A stretch of DNA of 64,000 nt, taken from positions 36,570 to 100,569 of IMG/VR virus record IMGVR_UViG_3300021378_000010. One strand, written 5' to 3'. The notes under the pieces are model-generated. The model did no database searches. It saw nothing but the letters and a program-made list of their open reading frames with translations, and was not told the DNA's origin. Made by a program: the position numbers and the translations under genes. Numbering within the stretch: position 1 is the stretch's first letter; each line of letters starts with the position of its first letter. Shown here in pieces: positions 6,739-62,248 of the stretch. The DNA is from a virus.

Positions 6739-7446
6739 ATGGCAAAGAAACTTCCAAAAATTGATTTACCACTTTTTGAACTAGTGCTTCCATCAACAGG
6801 AAAAAAAATCAAGTATCGCCCCTTTACAGTAAAGGAAGAAAAGATTCTTCTAGTAGCTCAGGAGTCAAATGAACCTGAACAAACCATACTTTCTATAAAG
6901 CAGGTAATTAACAACTGTCTTATCGATATTGACGTTGAAAAGCTTGCGATGTTTGACCTCGAGTATGTAATTCTAGTACTTCGTTCTAAGTCTGTTGATA
7001 ATAATATCAAGTTTGCTATTAAGGATCCAGATACGAATGAAAGTGTAGAACTTGAAATTGATCTCAATGATGTTAAAGTTACAAAGGATGAAGAGCACAG
7101 CAATAAAGTAAAAATCAATGAAGATTACACGCTGTTTCTACGTTATCCAACAATTCAAGAATTTATCAAAATTGCTGGCGCTGATCCTAAAGACTCACTT
7201 ACGAGTTACTTCATCATGATTTCTTGCCTTGACAAGATTGCTTCTGAAAGTGAAGTATATAAGTTTTCAGATTACACTGATGAAGAGATTGATGATTTTA
7301 TGGAAAACTTACAAGGTGATATAATTAAAAAGATCCAAAAGTTTTTTGAAACTATGCCAAAGCTTCGACACGAAATGAAATACAAAAATAGCGAAGGTAA
7401 GGAACAAACCTTTGTGATTGAGGGAATGCGCAGTTTTTTTATCTAG
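6739..7446 (+). CDS. Baseplate hub assembly protein (gp26/gp51 family)
   Basis: LPSTGKKIKYRPFTVKEEKILL...FDLEYVILVLRSKSV...FFETMPKL. Confidence 0.85.
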   Translation: MAKKLPKIDLPLFELVLPSTGKKIKYRPFTVKEEKILLVAQESNEPEQTILSIKQVINNCLIDIDVEKLAMFDLEYVILVLRSKSVDNNIKFAIKDPDTNESVELEIDLNDVKVTKDEEHSNKVKINEDYTLFLRYPTIQEFIKIAGADPKDSLTSYFIMISCLDKIASESEVYKFSDYTDEEIDDFMENLQGDIIKKIQKFFETMPKLRHEMKYKNSEGKEQTFVIEGMRSFFI

Positions 7447-39146: not shown

Positions 39147-39581
39147 ATGGATAAAGAACAGCTTACATCGCAAATGAAGGTAATTTTGGCTACTAGCTTT
39201 TCATTATATCTCAAAGCTCATAACTATCATTGGAATGTTACAGGTCCTAATTTTGCTCAGTATCATGAGTTTTTTGGAGACATTTATACCGATGTTTGGG
39301 AATCGCTCGATACGACTGCAGAAGAGATTCGTAAACTTGGATCCTTTGCGCCAGGTTCTTTGGCGAGATATTTAGAAATCTCAAGAATTGAAGATGAAAT
39401 GAATATTCCTGAAGCTCCAGTTATGTTTCAAAGACTTGCAGCTGACAATGACAAACTTATTGGTCTTTTATATATGGCTCGCACTACAGCAGATGAAGTG
39501 AACGCAGCAGGAACACTTAACTATCTAGAAGGTCGTATTGACACACACGAAAAACATGGCTGGATGTTAAAAAGTTTCTAA
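39147..39581 (+). CDS. dps: Dps/ferritin-like protein
   Basis: HNYHWNVTG..F...HEFF...D..AE..R...HEKHGWML. Confidence 0.92.
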   Translation: MDKEQLTSQMKVILATSFSLYLKAHNYHWNVTGPNFAQYHEFFGDIYTDVWESLDTTAEEIRKLGSFAPGSLARYLEISRIEDEMNIPEAPVMFQRLAADNDKLIGLLYMARTTADEVNAAGTLNYLEGRIDTHEKHGWMLKSF

Positions 39582-39652
39582 AAATTGAATTTTTTTGTTG
39601 ACAAAGGCGCCGAATCAGTATAAATATAATCTATAGAATAAAGAGGAAACCT

Positions 39653-39742
39653 ATGAACCGCTCAATTATGAAAAACATTTATACCATGTATACATGCAAG
39701 CATGAACGCTTTTGCATGTCTGAGGGTTTTGGAAACGGTTAA
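39653..39742 (+). CDS. Putative attenuator leader peptide 1 (MNRSIMKNIYTMYTCKHERFCMSEGFGNG)
   Basis: SD GAGGA; TATAAATA at 39619; 3' end overlaps antiterminator strand; codons match array-1 tRNAs. Confidence 0.75.
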   Translation: MNRSIMKNIYTMYTCKHERFCMSEGFGNG

Positions 39743-39801
39743 CGAGTATAGTAAGTTAATAAGTTTCAAACCCTCCAGGCGAAAGTCTCGGAGGGTTTTT
39801 T
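39722..39801 (+). terminator. Attenuator 1: antiterminator 39722-39736/39763-39775 versus intrinsic terminator 39768-39801
   Basis: GAGGGTTTTGGAAAC pairs with GTTTCAAACCCTC; AAACCCTCC-AGGCGAAAGTCTC-GGAGGGTTT plus T run. Confidence 0.8.
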
Positions 39802-39849
39802 ATTTTATGGGTTGACATTCGGTAAGAATCAGTATAGATTAATAATATA

Positions 39850-40061
39850 AGGAATCAAGGTTCCTACGCTTTTTGAAAATTTAGAAGTGGCCTTAGGTTA
39901 GTCCGATGATAGGCTGGAAATAGAAATATTCTATTTTCACATGCACTATGTTACTGGTGGTACAACCTGTCCAGTAGTGATAGCGAGTTGACGAGGTTCG
40001 ATTCCTTGCTTGGATAAACGAAGGTTCGAATCCTTCCGTAGTGCAGTTGTAAATAGAATAT
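39850..40061 (+). promoter_or_regulatory. rrn-leader-like element: hairpin, boxA-like CGCTTTTTGAAAATT, long processing-type stem (39926-39948/40039-40061)
   Basis: Paralogous element at 54792-54960 with compensatory changes. Confidence 0.55.
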
Positions 40062-40146
40062 GGGAAGGTAAAGTCGGGGGTTCCGACACGCGGACTGTAA
40101 ATCCGTTCTTTAACCGGGAGAGGTTCGAGTCCTCACCTTCCCACCA
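40062..40146 (+). tRNA. tRNA-Tyr(GTA)
   Basis: Cloverleaf; GCGGA-CT-GTA-AA-TCCGT; CCA. Confidence 0.85.
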
Positions 40147-40151
40147 AACAC

Positions 40152-40227
40152 GGTGCTGTAGCTCAGTTGGTAGAGCAACGGACTCATATTCCGTGCGTCG
40201 TAGGTTCGATCCCTACTAGCACCACCA
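40152..40227 (+). tRNA. tRNA-Met(CAT), elongator-like
   Basis: ACGGA-CT-CAT-AT-TCCGT; CCA. Confidence 0.85.
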
Positions 40228-40228
40228 T

Positions 40229-40303
40229 GGCCCCATAGATTATGGGTTAGATCACTGCCCTTTCAAGGCGGAGAACTGGGTTCAAGTCCCAGTGGGGCTA
40301 CCA
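40229..40303 (+). tRNA. tRNA-Glu(TTC)
   Basis: CTGCC-CT-TTC-AA-GGCGG; CCA. Confidence 0.88.
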
Positions 40304-40370
40304 AAATAAAAGGTTGACATTCGTTCCGAATCAGTATAAATTGATATTATAAACAAATGGAGAATACAAT

Positions 40371-40532
40371 ATGACACTTTCTTTTGATCCACTCGATACG
40401 TATGTAAAAATGGTAATGGAAGTTTCTGACGAAACTCTTGTTCGTTTCTTTGACTCCATGGGTATTGACATCAATCTTGATGTTGATGTTGAAGACGAAG
40501 ATGAAGGTATTCTATACGATTGTGAGGCATAA
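40371..40532 (+). CDS. Small acidic hypothetical protein
   Basis: SD GGAG, early promoter; manual translation MTLSFDPLDTY... Confidence 0.55.
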   Translation: MTLSFDPLDTYVKMVMEVSDETLVRFFDSMGIDINLDVDVEDEDEGILYDCEA

Positions 40533-40813
40533 TGGTTAAGGTTCTTATATACGGCTCAAAAGAGCTTTATGACGATTCGTCTTATGAAGGACGAGCCGAA
40601 GCTGATATTGTTCTTTATAGAGATAAAGATGATACTTATCACGCGAGAAAGAACCGTACCCGTCGCTATATTGGAAAATATTTATATGGTGGTATGCTTG
40701 AACACGTTCTTAACCGGATTGAAAATGATGAATGGGAAGCCGATATGAAATCATATAAGCTTCAGCAGAAATATAAAGACCATCATTTAATCGAATTGAG
40801 TAAAAATGGCTGA
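40532..40813 (+). CDS. Hypothetical protein
   Basis: ORF track; translationally coupled. Confidence 0.65.
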   Translation: MVKVLIYGSKELYDDSSYEGRAEADIVLYRDKDDTYHARKNRTRRYIGKYLYGGMLEHVLNRIENDEWEADMKSYKLQQKYKDHHLIELSKNG

Positions 40814-41327
40814 TAGAAAATATCTCGTGTTTCTAGACATTGATGGCGTATTTACTTCGTCTCGTGTACATTATGCACACAACGCAGTTTATGAAATGTG
40901 GCACAGGTTTGACCCTGTTGCAGTTGACTTTATGAACAAAATCCATGATCGTTATCCAGTTCAATTTGTTTTGATCTCGACTTGGAAGAATTATCTTCGT
41001 AATGACGATAATCAAATCGAACATTGGATCCGTGCAGCATTTGCCAATTCTGGTTTTAGAGGTGATTTCCCGACAATGTGGAAAACCGATCCGGACAACC
41101 TTTGGGCTAACAAACCTTCGCCGTATGATCGTAGTCACGAGATCAAAGATTACCTCGAAGAGTACGCTTCTGACGTTCTTGATTATCTCATCTTTGATGA
41201 CAACGATTATGGATTTGAAAAAGTCTTAGGTAAGAAAAGACTTATCAGAACAGATCCTGAAAATGGATTACTCTATAAACACATGCAACGGGCCCAGAGC
41301 ATAATGGGTCAGTGGCACAAAAGATAA
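40806..41327 (+). CDS. HAD-domain protein (RNA-repair-associated HAD type)
   Basis: FLDIDGV, ISTW, EI..YL, IFDD, D...GL. Confidence 0.75.
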   Translation: MADRKYLVFLDIDGVFTSSRVHYAHNAVYEMWHRFDPVAVDFMNKIHDRYPVQFVLISTWKNYLRNDDNQIEHWIRAAFANSGFRGDFPTMWKTDPDNLWANKPSPYDRSHEIKDYLEEYASDVLDYLIFDDNDYGFEKVLGKKRLIRTDPENGLLYKHMQRAQSIMGQWHKR

Positions 41328-41328
41328 T

Positions 41329-41404
41329 GCTTCCGTAGCTCAGTGGACAGAGCAACCGGCTACGAACCGGTAGGTCGAGGGTTCAAATCCTTCCGGGAGT
41401 ACCA
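41329..41404 (+). tRNA. tRNA-Arg(ACG)
   Basis: ACCGG-CT-ACG-AA-CCGGT; CCA. Confidence 0.92.
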
Positions 41405-41406
41405 AT

Positions 41407-41482
41407 GCATCAGTAGCTCAGTTGGTAGAGCACATGGTTGAAGCCCATGGTGTCGGTGGTTCGATCCCTCCCTGATGCACCA
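41407..41482 (+). tRNA. tRNA-Phe(GAA)
   Basis: CATGG-TT-GAA-GC-CCATG; CCA. Confidence 0.9.
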
Positions 41483-41565
41483 ATTTTTAGTGTGTATGAA
41501 TTTTTCTATTGACATTCGTTTAGAATCAGTATATTCTAATAATGTAAGGAACGAAAGGAACTAAA

Positions 41566-41775
41566 ATGAAAACGATGTTTGGAACTACTCTTGTGCTTAC
41601 GGTCATTGCTTGGGTCTTTCTCTGGCCTCTCGTAGGGATCTGGGCTCTCAATACTCTGTTCGCTATGGGTATTGCTTATACATTCTGGAACTGGCTTGCT
41701 ATGATCGTTCTGACTGTATTCTTCGGTAGAGCTTCCCTCAAGGCAAACAAGGAAGTAAAGCTTCCCTCAAGGTAA
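41566..41775 (+). CDS. Small membrane protein
   Basis: Hydrophobic; early promoter and SD. Confidence 0.7.
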   Translation: MKTMFGTTLVLTVIAWVFLWPLVGIWALNTLFAMGIAYTFWNWLAMIVLTVFFGRASLKANKEVKLPSR

Positions 41776-41791
41776 ACAAGGACTAAAGAAA

Positions 41792-41956
41792 ATGAAACGA
41801 AAACCAAAGGTGCCTAAGGAACGAAACGAAGCTGTTTTTCAATTGGTTAAAAGAGCTGGTGCTGGTTCCGGTGTGCACGGTAAATCACAAAAAGCAGAAC
41901 GTAGGGCTGCTAAAGTTTCTCTACAACAAAAATGGACCCCTAGCTCAGTTGGTTAG
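41792..41956 (+). CDS. Small basic protein whose stop codon lies inside tRNA-Lys
   Basis: MKRKPKVPKERNEAVFQLVKRAGAGSGVHGKSQKAERRAAKVSLQQKWTPSSVG (manual translation). Confidence 0.55.
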   Translation: MKRKPKVPKERNEAVFQLVKRAGAGSGVHGKSQKAERRAAKVSLQQKWTPSSVG

Positions 41957-42010
41957 AGCAGCCGACTTTTAATCGGCAGGTCCTGAGTTCGAATCTCAGG
42001 GGGTTCACCA
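41934..42010 (+). tRNA. tRNA-Lys(TTT)
   Basis: GCCGA-CT-TTT-AA-TCGGC; CCA. Confidence 0.92.
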
Positions 42011-42126
42011 TTATTTTGATGATACACTACGGGCCCCGCGGAAAAGAATGTTATCCAGTTCGTCTGGTTCATGTAAAACAACACTTACCGCAAACAATAG
42101 TAGTGTATCTTCTAAGTAATGAATAT

Positions 42127-42201
42127 AGTGGTGTAGCTCAGTGGTAGAGCAAACCCCTGATAAGGGTTAGGTCGGTGGTTCGAATCCTTCAGGGAGTACC
42201 A
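42127..42201 (+). pseudogene. Chimeric tRNA-Ile(GAT) with unpaired acceptor stem
   Basis: 5' Ile body; 3' end AATCCTTCAGGGAGTACCA nearly identical to the tRNA-Arg(ACG) 3' end. Confidence 0.65.
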
Positions 42202-42278
42202 AAATAAACAGTTGACATTACCTAAGAATCAGTATATATTCATAATATAAGGTAAAACAAAACGCAACATGAGAACAC

Positions 42279-42446
42279 ATGATGAAAATCAAGACTAATC
42301 CTTTTATTGTTAGACATACTCAAAATACAGTTGAAGTTTGGCTAGGAGAACCCAATGAGCCAGAAAGCGAGTTTGTTCTTTGCTGTGATGCACAGCTGGT
42401 TCCTGCACTTATTGCAACACTAAAAAGCATCGGTTTTGCAAAATAA
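42279..42446 (+). CDS. Small hypothetical protein
   Basis: After early promoter at 42212; manual translation MMKIKTNPFIVRH... Confidence 0.5.
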   Translation: MMKIKTNPFIVRHTQNTVEVWLGEPNEPESEFVLCCDAQLVPALIATLKSIGFAK

Positions 42447-42753
42447 AACAGAAATGCTTTTAAGCGACAATATAGGCTGAGTTCAGTGTTTCTCGAGATA
42501 AACTGTTCCAGCACATCATCGCCCCGCCCTCCCACCGTGCGGCACCCGATGTAAAATATTGAGAATGAAGGAAGAAGATGATGAAACAAGATCTGAAACT
42601 TATTCGTCAAAAGATTCGTATTGCTAATAAACTTCCTGAGTCTAACCCTGTTGAATATAATCTGAAACAGGATATACTTAGACACTGGGAGATGGAGCGA
42701 CACATTCTGAAACAAGCTATAGAGATGGATCAGTTTGAACCGCAATAGAATAT

Positions 42754-42829
42754 GCGCCGGTAGCTCAGTGGCCAGAGCAGGGGACTCTTAATCCCAAGGT
42801 CGTGGGTTCGACTCCCACTCGGCACACCA
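42754..42829 (+). tRNA. tRNA-Lys(CTT)
   Basis: GGGA-CT-CTT-AA-TCCC; CCA. Confidence 0.88.
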
Positions 42830-42833
42830 AGAC

Positions 42834-42917
42834 GGTAGACGGCCCGGACGGTAAGGGGCGGGATTGCAAATCCCAGGCAGCGAAAGCTATGCGGTTCGAC
42901 TCCGCAGTCTACCTCCA
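42834..42917 (+). tRNA. tRNA-Cys(GCA) with long variable arm
   Basis: GGGA-TT-GCA-AA-TCCC; U73-CCA. Confidence 0.8.
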
Positions 42918-42923
42918 AATTTT

Positions 42924-42997
42924 TGTCTCATAGCTCAACGGTAGAGCAAACGGCTGATAACCGTTAGATGGGAGTTCGATTCTCCCTGAGACAACCA
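42924..42997 (+). tRNA. tRNA-Ile(GAT)
   Basis: AACGG-CT-GAT-AA-CCGTT; CCA. Confidence 0.88.
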
Positions 42998-43004
42998 TAA
43001 ATAA

Positions 43005-43079
43005 GCTGACTTGGTGTTAATGGTAGCACGGCTGTGTGGTATACAGTAAGAAGAGGCTCAATCCCTCTAGTCAGCACCA
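43005..43079 (+). tRNA. tRNA-Thr(GGT)
   Basis: GCTGT-GT-GGT-AT-ACAGT; acceptor GCTGACT/AGTCAGC; CCA. Confidence 0.78.
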
Positions 43080-43080
43080 T

Positions 43081-43155
43081 CCTGACGTAGTGATAATGGT
43101 AGCACACTGAGCTGTGGACTCGGTAGAGTTGGTTCGAAACCAGCCGTCAGGACCA
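43081..43155 (+). tRNA. tRNA-His(GTG), alphaproteobacterial type (no G-1, A73)
   Basis: CTGAG-CT-GTG-GA-CTCGG; CCTGACG/CGTCAGG-A-CCA. Confidence 0.85.
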
Positions 43156-44487: not shown

Positions 44488-44504
44488 AATATACTATGAA
44501 ACAT

Positions 44505-44587
44505 TGGTTTGTTTCAGCAAAAACTCGGATAAAAATCAAACTTCATAACTTTGATCGAATGGGTTCAAATCCCACCATACAAACCAG
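44505..44587 (+). ncRNA. Stem-CAGCA ncRNA copy 3, with anticodon-like and T arms
   Basis: TGGTTTGT-TTCAGCAA...TGGGTTCAAATCCCA...ACAAACCA-G. Confidence 0.65.
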
Positions 44588-44600
44588 AAAGGAATACACT

Positions 44601-46028
44601 ATGTCTTTTAAAAATGCAGCACTAAATATGAATAACGAAGCGGTAGCTCGTACTGAAAATGGTATGAGAGCTCGTAAGACTTCTGCCTCTGCAGTTCTTG
44701 ATTTTTTCGGTAAAGCTGGTTCCGCTCGTGGAACCGATATTACAAAAGATTTTATGTCTGCACTTGTAGACAACCAGGACCTCGCTGTTCGGGCTCTTCT
44801 TTGGACTCGTGACATTCGTGGTGGTGCTGGTGAACGTTCTCAGTTCCGTAATTTGCTTGCAAAGCTAGAGGCTTCCGACCCAACTCTAGCTGGTCGTTTG
44901 ATGGCACGAGTTCCTGAACTTGGCCGTTGGGATGATCTATTCGCTTACACTGATCCAATCAACCGTCGTAAGGCTTTTGAAATGATCCGTGAAGCACTGA
45001 CTATGAAGAATGGTCTATGCGCTAAGTGGATGCCTCGCAAAGGTTCTGTAGCTGTAGAACTTACTAAGTTTCTTAATCTGACTCCAAAGCAGTATCGTAA
45101 GTTGCTGGTTGGTCTAACTCAGGTTGTTGAAACTCAGATGTGTGCAAAGGAATGGGAAGCAATCAACTTCTCTCACGTTCCTTCTGTAGCATCTGCCCGC
45201 TACCAGAAAGCATTTGGTCGTAACGTTGGTGAAGCATATGGAGAATATCTTCGTGAACTCCAGAAGGCACCAGAGGATCGTAAAGATCCTAAAGTTAAGA
45301 TCAACGCAGCTGCAGTATATCCATACGATGTTGTGAAGTCTGTTACAAAGGGTAATGCGGCTGTTGCTAACGAACAGTGGAAGGCTCTGCCTAACTACGT
45401 TGGTGATGCTCGTATCATGCCGATGGTTGACGTATCTGGTTCTATGGGTAGACTTCGTTACAGTAGCGCTGGAACTGTTCAACCAATCGACGTAGCAATC
45501 TCTCTGGGTCTGTATCTGTCTGAAAAGAACACTTCTGATTTCAAGGACATGTTCCTGACTTTCAGTGGCAAGCCAAAGCTTGAAGTTCTCAAAGGCACTC
45601 TGTCTCAGCGTGTCGCACAGCTTGAGAAAGCACATTGGGACATGAACACTAACCTTCACGCAGCATTCGAAGAAATCCTTCGTGTTGCTAAGAAGGGTAA
45701 GGTTGCTCAAGCAGATATGCCTGAGATGCTGCTCATCCTCTCGGATATGCAGTTCGACAGCTGCACTCGCTTCGATGACTCTGCACAAGAGATGATCAAG
45801 CGTAAGTATGCTGAAGCAGGTTATGAAGTTCCTAAGATCGTATTCTGGAACCTTCGTGTATCAGGTACAGGTAACACTCCTGTTCGTTTCGATGATAAGG
45901 GTGTCTGCCACGTATCTGGTTTCAGCCCAGCAATCATGAAGGCAATTCTGTCTGTTGAAGAACTGGAAGACTTCACGCCGTTCAACGTGATGGTTAAGAC
46001 TCTTATGAGCGATCGTTACGATTACTAA
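44601..46028 (+). CDS. TROVE/Ro60-related vWA protein (DUF2828-like)
   Basis: TENG, RDIRGGAGER, GRWDDL, AKWMPR helical region; vWA DVSGSM, SDMQFD, FWNL; SD AAAGGA before ATG 44601. Confidence 0.8.
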   Translation: MSFKNAALNMNNEAVARTENGMRARKTSASAVLDFFGKAGSARGTDITKDFMSALVDNQDLAVRALLWTRDIRGGAGERSQFRNLLAKLEASDPTLAGRLMARVPELGRWDDLFAYTDPINRRKAFEMIREALTMKNGLCAKWMPRKGSVAVELTKFLNLTPKQYRKLLVGLTQVVETQMCAKEWEAINFSHVPSVASARYQKAFGRNVGEAYGEYLRELQKAPEDRKDPKVKINAAAVYPYDVVKSVTKGNAAVANEQWKALPNYVGDARIMPMVDVSGSMGRLRYSSAGTVQPIDVAISLGLYLSEKNTSDFKDMFLTFSGKPKLEVLKGTLSQRVAQLEKAHWDMNTNLHAAFEEILRVAKKGKVAQADMPEMLLILSDMQFDSCTRFDDSAQEMIKRKYAEAGYEVPKIVFWNLRVSGTGNTPVRFDDKGVCHVSGFSPAIMKAILSVEELEDFTPFNVMVKTLMSDRYDY

Positions 46029-54437: not shown

Positions 54438-54499
54438 AAAAGTTTGTAGCACGCCGTCTTTCCGATATAAATAAATGTATGATAATAAAGAAGAGAAAA

Positions 54500-54574
54500 A
54501 TGCTTTCGATACTCGCCCAGAATAGTGTAACAAATTGGTCCGATCTTCCGGGTGGAGGGTTCGAGTTGCTTTGA
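54500..54574 (+). CDS. Putative attenuator leader peptide 2 (MLSILAQNSVTNWSDLPGGGFELL); in-frame ATG also at 54479
   Basis: TATAAATA at 54466; 3' end overlaps antiterminator strand; codons match array-2 tRNAs. Confidence 0.75.
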   Translation: MLSILAQNSVTNWSDLPGGGFELL

Positions 54575-54631
54575 CGTGGAATGTACATATCTACTTTAAG
54601 CAACTCGGGACATAAAAATCCCGAGTTTTTT
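54562..54631 (+). terminator. Attenuator 2: antiterminator 54562-54571/54598-54607 versus intrinsic terminator 54602-54631
   Basis: CGAGTTGCTT/AAGCAACTCG perfect 10 bp; AACTCGGGA-N8-TCCCGAGTT plus T run. Confidence 0.8.
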
Positions 54632-54791
54632 ATTTTGTTGTTGACATTTCGTGAGAATCGGTATAGTATGATAATATAAGGAATCAAGGAATAAACCACG
54701 ACGAGCCAAGCTCAAGACGGTAAAACTTTTTTCCTTAAACTGAACTTTTTAGGTTGACAAATACACCGAATCAGTTTAATATGATAATATA

Positions 54792-54960
54792 AGGAATGAA
54801 AATTCCTACGCTCTTTGAAAATTTGCTCCTTTTATCTTCTAGGCACATGCCGATAATGAAGATGGAAACAGACTTGCTCTGTTTTCACATGCACTAAAGA
54901 AAGTGTCTGATTAAGCTCAGCGAAAGGACGTGAAGCGTATAGTGCAGCTGAAAACAGAGC
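54792..54960 (+). promoter_or_regulatory. rrn-leader-like element: hairpin, boxA-like CGCTCTTTGAAAATT, long stem (54876-54896/54940-54960)
   Basis: Paralog of 39850-40061. Confidence 0.6.
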
Positions 54961-55866: not shown

Positions 55867-56168
55867 AAATAGACTGGATATAATCACCCCTTGTGAGGGT
55901 GACCCAAGGACTCAGTAACGAGATACAGCGAAGGGTTGTTGGTCAAGGTTGCAAACAACCCAGTCTATACTTATTCACTGTGTAAGAGGTCGACATCTTG
56001 CATAGAGAGAACACTGCATACCCCGTGGAACCTCGGGGTACCGACGATGACAGTTGTTGTGCAGGGGTAAAAGTCCCAACTGGGGGTTCTGGAAATTTTT
56101 ATAGGCGACGGCAATCGCCTTGACTAAAGAACTACAGTAGCAGTCTTTGCCGAGAAAGCGAACTAGTA

Positions 56169-56240
56169 GACTGTATCGTCTAATGGATAGGACGCCCTGC
56201 TTTACAGTGGGGAGATATGGGTTCGATACCTGTTGCAGTT
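56169..56240 (+). pseudogene. Degenerate tRNA-like element without CCA, inside a TGACTAAAGA/TCTTTAGTCA stem
   Basis: D arm TCGTCTAATGGATAGGAC; T loop GGTTCGATACC; irregular anticodon loop. Confidence 0.5.
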
Positions 56241-56262
56241 TTGTCTTTAGTCAGAAATTTAT

Positions 56263-61820: not shown

Positions 61821-61894
61821 CATTTTTGTCACATATTTACTAAATAGTAATTTAGCAGTTGACATTTACTATAAAATGTATTATATATAACTTG

Positions 61895-62217
61895 TAGGCG
61901 TTGAAGCAACGTGGACACATTCTGGACTCGGGGGCGGTACCCGACGACTCCACCATAAACAGTCGCGATCTTCTGATCCTTAAAGTGATGATGAGTCTGA
62001 CCACAGAGCCAAGGCAGTGATAAGCTAGTCATGGGTGACTGTTTTTGCTGGGGTCGAAATAGGATCGACAGGTGTGAAGATGAAGTGGAGTTTACCGGAT
62101 GACTGCGTTATTGGTCAATTAAACTAAATGCAAATGAAAATTTCGCACCTAAGGCTTTTGCTCTAGCAGCATAAGTACTGTGGGTTGGCAACTTACCTAG
62201 AAACAGAAAAGTTGCAC
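61895..62217 (+). ncRNA. ssrA: Two-piece (circularly permuted) tmRNA; tag (A)ANENFAPKAFALAA
   Basis: Acceptor piece ending CGACTCCACCA (61955); intervening hairpin; coding piece from GGGGTCG (62050); tag frame 62130-62174. Confidence 0.92.
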
Positions 62218-62248
62218 TTTTCATGAAAACAAAACAAGGAATACAAAT

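Follow-up and report, generated by a model that had tools for sequence, protein, structure and literature searches.

We describe a short leader unit that likely acts as a leader-peptide transcription attenuator, gating read-through into a phage-encoded tRNA array with a tRNA-mimic RNA as its first product, and that appears to be tuned to the supply of the charged tRNAs encoded by the array. Based on sequence comparison and fold prediction, we assign this reading a probability of roughly 70%. The phage would thus probably make more tRNA when ribosomes run short. The unit is located in a 64-kb stretch of DNA (the window) that forms the end of a virus record of 100.6 kb. We regard the source record as that of a T4-like phage; its topoisomerase II large subunit shares 49% identity with the protein of Vibrio phage nt-1 and relatives. 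The sequence of the window was found only in assembled DNA metagenome contigs, and one RNA run covers only conserved tRNA parts. An earlier note, made from the letters of the window, had proposed an attenuator whose leader codons match the array-1 tRNAs, and every computational test carried out agrees with a leader-peptide attenuator of the trp type whose tuning follows the tRNAs encoded downstream. Support comes from the match between leader codons and array tRNAs, a mirror-image second unit, homologous units in relatives, an antiterminator arm constrained as RNA and tRNA genes that directly adjoin the terminator in relatives.

Leader unit 1 and tRNA array 1

The leader promoter (39598-39626) lies on the + strand, as do the other leader, switch, terminator and array features of the window given below. 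By direct reading, it consists of TTGACA (39598-603) and TATAAATA (39619-26), the latter of which we take to be the late-promoter consensus of T4-like phages. Only seven copies of TATAAATA are present on the + strand of the 100-kb genome and two of these are the promoters of leader 1 and of its paralog. The combination of an upstream TTGACA and TATAAATA also recurs before most homologous leaders. We infer that leader promoters act mainly late in infection. A family of strong promoters with the pattern TTGACA-N9-GAATCAGTATA was additionally observed at 39598, 39812, 40314, 41509, 42212, 54641, 54754 and 55090. Within this family, the full late-type TATAAATA occurs only in the two leader promoters, and several non-leader members carry a conserved ATAATATAAGGAAT hairpin at the transcript start.

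A Shine-Dalgarno sequence (GAGGA, 39643-39647, direct reading) precedes the ATG at 39653 by 5 nt. Leader ORF 1 (39653-39742) comprises 29 codons plus a TAA stop codon (39740-42), and direct reading confirmed the codon list and coordinates given in the earlier note. As in a trp-type attenuator, the short ORF has its own ribosome-binding site, a promoter on its 5' side and tRNA genes on its 3' side. Its peptide contains 13 kinds of amino acids, with His, Cys, Tyr and Lys present and Trp, Gln, Asp and Pro absent; codons 2 to 20 represent the predicted sensing window. In a metagenome variant of the same locus (L279), codons 1 to 22 show a single synonymous change compared with six changes in the 63 nt upstream. 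The variant further carries a Ser-to-Leu change at codon 23 and a heavily changed spacer. A ferritin-like gene (Pfam Ferritin, 39147-39581) is located directly 5' of leader unit 1. It was considered as a member of the unit and rejected: most of 65 ferritin-like loci have no array downstream, which places the gene outside the unit.

Array 1 (40067-43155) encodes Tyr-GTA, Met-CAT, Glu-TTC, Arg-ACG, Phe-GAA, Lys-TTT, Lys-CTT, Cys-GCA, Ile-GAT, Thr-GGT and His-GTG, with small ORFs and internal promoters between the tRNA genes. Nine of these tRNAs were called by ARAGORN at default settings and relaxed detection was required for the other two of the 11, namely Thr-GGT (43005-43079), an Rfam tRNA match with 48.2 bits, and Tyr-GTA (40067-40146), found by relaxed ARAGORN only, plus a sub-threshold match of 36.4 bits. 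Two side observations concern the same region: a gene with an RNA-repair-type HAD domain (HAD_SAK_2) is located at 40806-41327 inside the array, and a tRNA match at 42134-42190 has a GAT-like anticodon loop and no proper acceptor stem.

The leader codons match this array closely. Under strict wobble rules, only AAC (twice), TCA and ACA among the first 22 codons are out of reach of the array-1 tRNAs, which read the other 18, and all 11 array-1 anticodons, as called by ARAGORN, relaxed ARAGORN and Rfam, are represented within these 22 codons. Both statements had been made from the letters of the window and hold upon recalculation. To estimate chance levels, codon frequencies were taken from the 73 ORFs of at least 150 aa in the genome and combined with strict wobble rules. 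Array-1 tRNAs can read 36% of codons under this genome codon usage; for the first 22 leader codons without the start, the figure is 17 of 21 (P = 3e-5). A random ORF of 22 codons would be expected to cover 6.1 anticodons on average and would cover all 11 with P = 2.4e-4. The codon-match statistics for the window amount to P = 3e-5, 2.4e-4 and 8e-6. The match extends to the level of isoacceptors, as ATT is used in unit 1 together with Ile-GAT and ATA in unit 2 together with Ile-TAT, while AAA and AAG stand beside two Lys tRNAs. For read vs unread codons within amino acids, only about 5 codons are informative. Two complete relatives, G001 and G002, have leader codons matching the tRNAs encoded downstream, as does the window.

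The predicted RNA switch

Segment 1 (39650-39664), the predicted anti-antiterminator, consists of CC plus codons 2 to 4 and pairs with segment 2 in minimum-energy folds of the ribosome-free RNA. Segment 2 (39721-39736) is the 5' arm of the predicted antiterminator and spans codons 23 to 28 with a GAGGGT core. In the predicted folds, its partner is segment 3 (39763-39780), the 5' arm that antiterminator and terminator have in common. The intrinsic terminator (39768-39801), located between the leader ORF and the tRNA genes, has a 13-bp stem interrupted by one bulged C, closed by a GAAA loop and followed by a T6 run (stem 39768-98, T run to 39801), with a calculated energy of -18 to -19.1 kcal/mol. 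It had been noted before that 39722-36 can pair with 39763-75. This pairing is indeed the minimum-energy fold of a transcript lacking the 3' arm of the terminator, and the antiterminator formed before that arm is made spans approximately 39720-36 and 39763-78, with about -20 kcal/mol. A hairpin inside the ORF (39692-39719; arms ACATGCAA at 39692-99 and TTGCATGT at 39712-19), previously suggested as a pause site, was recovered in every predicted fold and may be a pause hairpin. Mid-ORF hairpins occur in relatives too, at different positions.

The earlier note had also called for folding with and without the segment covered by the ribosome, and the outcome agrees with attenuation. We modelled the ribosome as covering 12 nt past the first base of the A-site codon. 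For modelled stalls, the antiterminator helix remains whole with the A site up to codon 20 and its core is lost from codon 21 onwards. With the ribosome at the stop codon, the antiterminator is hidden and the terminator has no competing structure.

About 15 distinct homologous units, in which the ORF, the predicted switch and the terminator are retained, were collected from related phage contigs using the neighbouring gene, a conserved downstream motif and the terminator pattern. Scans of viral contigs with 15-mers gave mostly chance matches, and true relatives were selected by local blastn. A blastn search against cultured-phage records gave no leader homolog for the window unit or for a unit of the group-B relatives. 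In every unit, the minimum-energy fold predicted for the partial transcript joins the last 2 to 9 codons of the ORF to the terminator's 5' arm, in a register consistent with the stop codon. As long as segment 3 has not been made, at least half of segment 2 is predicted to pair with sequence that lies at the AUG or just 5' of it; this holds for 13 of 15 units. The predicted 1:2 pairing also buries the start region.

The terminator shows clear covariation, with 95% of cells able to pair across 15 homologs and three upper-stem pairs with 6-8 double changes each, a result reached by none of 500 shuffles. For the antiterminator, counting covariation in a fixed register yields 74.2% compared with 73.6% in shuffles, a count that is uninformative because the core is invariant and the register shifts. 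When own and cross antiterminator arms were compared without a fixed register, the own arm was better in 9 of 12 lineages. The GAGGGT core is kept in all homologs, in varying reading frames, which points to a constraint on the RNA and not on the peptide. In group-B relatives, the antiterminator core measures only 6 bp with a duplex energy near the shuffled mean, and their single His and Asp codons are so near the arm that a stall there would hide it.

In the proposed mechanism, RNA without a ribosome would form the 1:2 pairing and next the 3:4 pairing, and transcription would stop. A fast ribosome would reach the stop codon and cover segment 2, so that 3:4 would form and transcription would likewise stop. 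If the ribosome stalled at any of codons 2 to 20 for shortage of the cognate aminoacyl-tRNA, segment 2 would be free and the stalled ribosome, or a queue behind it, would hold segment 1. The 2:3 pairing could then form and RNA polymerase would proceed into the tRNA genes. Since each array-1 tRNA has one or two codons in the leader, the array should be transcribed more whenever any one of these tRNAs is short. Candidate causes of such shortage are codon demand, decay of host tRNAs and host anticodon nucleases.

Directly after the terminator and before the array, an early-type promoter of constitutive-looking sequence was found (39812-39840, TTGACA-17-TAGATT). Because of its position, the attenuator cannot be the sole control of array 1 and would here only add to other transcription. 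An early-type promoter takes this place in G001 as well, and in both genomes the tRNA-mimic RNA and then the array come next. Within array 1, further promoters are present at 40314, 41509 and 42212, and no + strand terminator was found inside the array. The late consensus TATAAATA at the leader promoter combined with early-type array promoters suggests that the attenuator would provide on-demand supply mainly after the early promoters are off.

Paralogous and homologous leaders

A paralogous putative attenuator is located at 54466-54633, with TATAAATA at 54466-73, an ORF at 54500-54574 and an arm at 54562-71 that pairs with 54598-607. Its terminator (54602-27 plus a T run) is followed by a promoter at 54641. 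The arm sequences of unit 2 are unrelated to those of unit 1 while the layout is identical, and the flanks 3' of the two terminators are homologous. Relaxed ARAGORN adds Ser-TGA, Ala-TGC, Ser-GGA and Ser-GCT to array 2; in the complete relative G001, default settings suffice to call all four. Leader 2 covers 16 of 19 array-2 anticodons (P = 2.5e-4) and contains three Ser codons, one for each of three Ser tRNAs. Using the extended tRNA list, the codons ahead of the switch divide 14:4 between array 1 and array 2 in leader 1 and 0:18 in leader 2 (Fisher P = 1.6e-6), and none of the 20 amino acids is missing from the two leaders combined. Leader 2 may be longer than 54500-54574 and possibly leaderless: in-frame ATGs are found at 54479-54499, approximately at the transcription start, and the upstream extension stays in frame in G001 (L262, 363-389). 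An upstream start, such as the ATG at 54479, would add ATA and AGA, read by the array-2 tRNAs Ile-TAT and Arg-TCT, plus Lys codons for array-1 tRNAs. At 56168-56242, ARAGORN calls a tRNA with an abnormal anticodon loop and 73% identity to an Asp tRNA of G001.

The same division is found in G001 (complete, 194.6 kb), which has two arrays and two leaders arranged as in the window. Its leaders together contain 20 kinds of amino acids and cover 19/25 anticodons of their own arrays vs 9/25 of the other (P = 0.01). In G002 (complete, 201 kb), a single long array stands behind a single leader with all 20 amino acids; codons for 20 of 23 phage anticodons occur in this leader (P = 0.004). Gln and Trp are absent from all four partial type-1 leaders (window, G001, L252 and L278), and in the window and G001, the two of these with known array content, the Gln and Trp tRNAs belong to array 2. 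His and Asn tRNA genes are absent from G001 and an Asn tRNA gene from G002, yet the leaders of both carry those residues. Leader composition is closer to the complete set of amino acids than to the precise list of tRNA genes. Array content turns over fast between close relatives while leaders keep those residues. Compared with the window, G001 (array 1 locus L261) apparently lacks the His, Asn, Thr-GGT and Lys-CTT tRNA genes; the locus of G002 is L263.

These observations bear on what exactly is sensed. We lean, if only slightly, towards a broader form of the attenuator reading, according to which T4-like phages carry a test ORF of 30-40 codons with each amino acid used once or twice, coupled to the four-segment switch. 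Shortage of a single charged tRNA would then activate the phage's own tRNAs and tRNA mimics from a late promoter, and the device would serve as a counter-defence sensor. Such a shortage could arise from a host anticodon nuclease cutting a tRNA. Upon splitting of the array in evolution, the test ORF would split with it, each half reporting its own tRNA set. A general translation-coupled attenuator, sensing overall elongation capacity or amino-acid starvation with the codon division between leaders as inherited history, seems unlikely to us although it is the strongest of the rival explanations. It would fit single-leader relatives that simply hold all 20 amino acids, the residues without a phage tRNA gene in the leaders of G001 and G002, and the 4 off-array codons among the first 22 of leader 1, a number above zero. 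However, codon choice follows isoacceptors (ATT vs ATA, three Ser boxes, AAA plus AAG), the division recurs in G001 despite much sequence change (P = 0.0025 at the codon level, from the codon table) and the genes regulated are tRNA genes.

A tRNA-tuned attenuator also has to be weighed against an independent small gene whose 29-residue peptide has a function of its own, with the hairpin ending a short transcript and the codon match being coincidental. The unit does have its own promoter, Shine-Dalgarno sequence and terminator, another promoter follows and the leader 1 peptide is conserved with that of G001 at about 15 of 28 positions. Nevertheless, we consider this explanation improbable, as the statistics on codon match, array division, retained composition and surveyed ORFs all speak against it. 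Nine distinct homologous leaders (34-40 residues) contain all 20 amino acids, three contain 19 and one contains 18, whereas a random peptide of 34-40 residues drawn from phage amino-acid usage would contain all 20 kinds with P = 0.001-0.006. Surveying ATG-started ORFs of 30-40 aa in 215 kb of these phages (n = 390), we found 20 kinds in three, two of which are leaders. The all-20 leaders are only 30-45% identical to each other, and random replacement at as many positions retains 20 kinds in 0.3-1.6% of trials. Residues move while composition stays, as seen for Tyr and Cys, whose positions are swapped between the leaders of the window and G001. A peptide with 13 kinds that complements its paralog to exactly 20 is hard to explain for an independent gene, as is the GAGGGT arm conserved in varying reading frames among homologs. 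Lastly, the tRNA gene (anticodon CAT, or Cys) starts 7-9 nt past the T run in most relatives, leaving no room for a promoter between terminator and first tRNA.

Least probable in our view is an untranslated structured RNA, either a small RNA or a 5' leader ending at the terminator, with the open frame as a by-product of structural constraints: the fold of the region is far more stable than those of shuffled sequences (z = -3.9) and the predicted structures place much of the ORF in base pairs, but an all-20 composition is meaningful only for RNA read by ribosomes, start and stop of the ORF are conserved across homologs with 30-45% identity, the variant L279 retains its stop through a TAA-to-TAG change and no Rfam family matches the RNA.

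A unit of the same design is present in a cultured phage. In Vibrio phage nt-1 (NC_021529.2, L293), an unannotated unit occupies 97931-97787 of the record on the minus strand, ca. 90 nt upstream of the main tRNA block. Its leader ORF (97931-97818, minus strand) has 37 codons and 19 of 20 kinds of amino acids, with TATAAATA on its 5' side. The terminator differs from that of the window and the arm sequences are unrelated while the layout is alike. The predicted antiterminator overlaps the stop codon and a segment of the 5'-UTR pairs with the same arm. The nt-1 topoisomerase region was considered as the array site and discarded, since it contains no tRNAs and the array lies elsewhere. As nt-1, whose host is V. 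natriegens, is in culture and carries a unit of this design, the idea can be tested at the bench.

Known systems and products of the arrays

The phage unit shares its layout with the enterobacterial leaders trpL, hisL, pheL and leuL and the multivalent thrL and ilvL, namely a promoter, a short ORF led by a Shine-Dalgarno sequence, four RNA segments whose pairings (1:2, 2:3 and 3:4, predicted for the phage) exclude one another, and an intrinsic terminator ahead of the regulated genes. In both, the regulatory codons name what is supplied downstream. Enterobacterial leaders, however, regulate biosynthetic enzymes while the phage unit precedes tRNA genes and a tRNA-mimic RNA. The phage leader further lacks a run of a single codon: each of the 11 tRNAs is represented by one or two codons, and leaders of relatives contain as many as all 20 amino acids. 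The unit is also encoded by a phage and carries a late-promoter consensus. Rfam leader families remained below their gathering thresholds (Phe_leader 21.3 vs 55 bits, His_leader 16.7 vs 49), and these matches mostly reflect the terminator.

T-box riboswitches likewise respond to tRNA charging by antitermination. They bind uncharged tRNA directly via a specifier codon, one T-box reading one tRNA, and have no translated ORF, whereas the phage unit has a leader ORF and would read many tRNAs. Rfam scans of the window gave no match to the T-box covariance model at the gathering score or at E<=5. In leaders of the ermC and cat type, drug-bound ribosomes stall at a specific peptide motif, which in most cases exposes a ribosome-binding site. 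The phage unit resembles them in that a short ORF would sense impaired elongation and refold downstream RNA, and differs in its predicted terminator-antiterminator pair and composition-based design.

The nearest printed case comes from Anabaena sp. PCC 7120, in which impaired translation induces the trn operon, a long, cryptic array of accessory tRNA genes co-regulated with dpsA and the RNA-repair ligase gene rtcB (PMC8421152). Its induction by translational stress proceeds via promoter repeats and the repressor TrcR, in contrast to the leader attenuation proposed for the phage, and the trn operon papers contain neither a leader peptide nor attenuation. Similar to Anabaena, a ferritin/Dps-like gene flanks array 1 of the phage and a gene with an RNA-repair HAD domain lies inside it. 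In the full-text literature on phage tRNAs, tRNA arrays and T4-like tRNA clusters, we found no published leader-peptide control of tRNA genes in the style of the trp operon, and a comparative paper on T4-like phages mentions only early promoters before tRNA genes.

The purpose of phage tRNA genes has been debated for about fifty years; the proposals are codon compensation, making up for the decay of the host pool and evasion of defences that cut tRNAs (PMC10264068, PMC10802454). A sensor that reads the tRNA pool codon by codon before the arrays would, if true, mean that tRNA supply is a variable under regulation by the phage and would reveal the tRNAs being monitored. Leader-peptide attenuation, known from textbooks for amino-acid operons, would then reach to RNA genes and to leaders built on composition rather than on codon runs. 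If the whole amino-acid alphabet is sensed, a counter-defence role would be a new use of attenuation.

The first product 3' of the attenuator is a tRNA-mimic non-coding RNA (39929-40058), predicted to fold into a long terminal stem plus T-arm-like hairpins. Such an RNA follows each attenuator of the window; copies are found in a paralog at about 54877-54960 and in two further loci, L001 (about 6769-6925) and L254 (about 764-883). They show compensatory changes in the terminal stem, a small internal loop and T-arm-like hairpins (GGTTCGA). Neither this RNA nor the downstream non-coding RNA of a relative matches an Rfam family; its modelled architecture resembles that of Y-RNA-like tRNA mimics. 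Two further observations concern the surroundings of the arrays. A permuted tmRNA of the two-piece type (61855-62218) lies 3' of array 2, with scores of 124.6 bits for alpha_tmRNA and 111.6 bits for tmRNA_permuted. At 44496-46028, a gene encodes a protein with vWA/DUF2828 and DUF7788 domains, which the earlier note had described as Ro60/TROVE-like.
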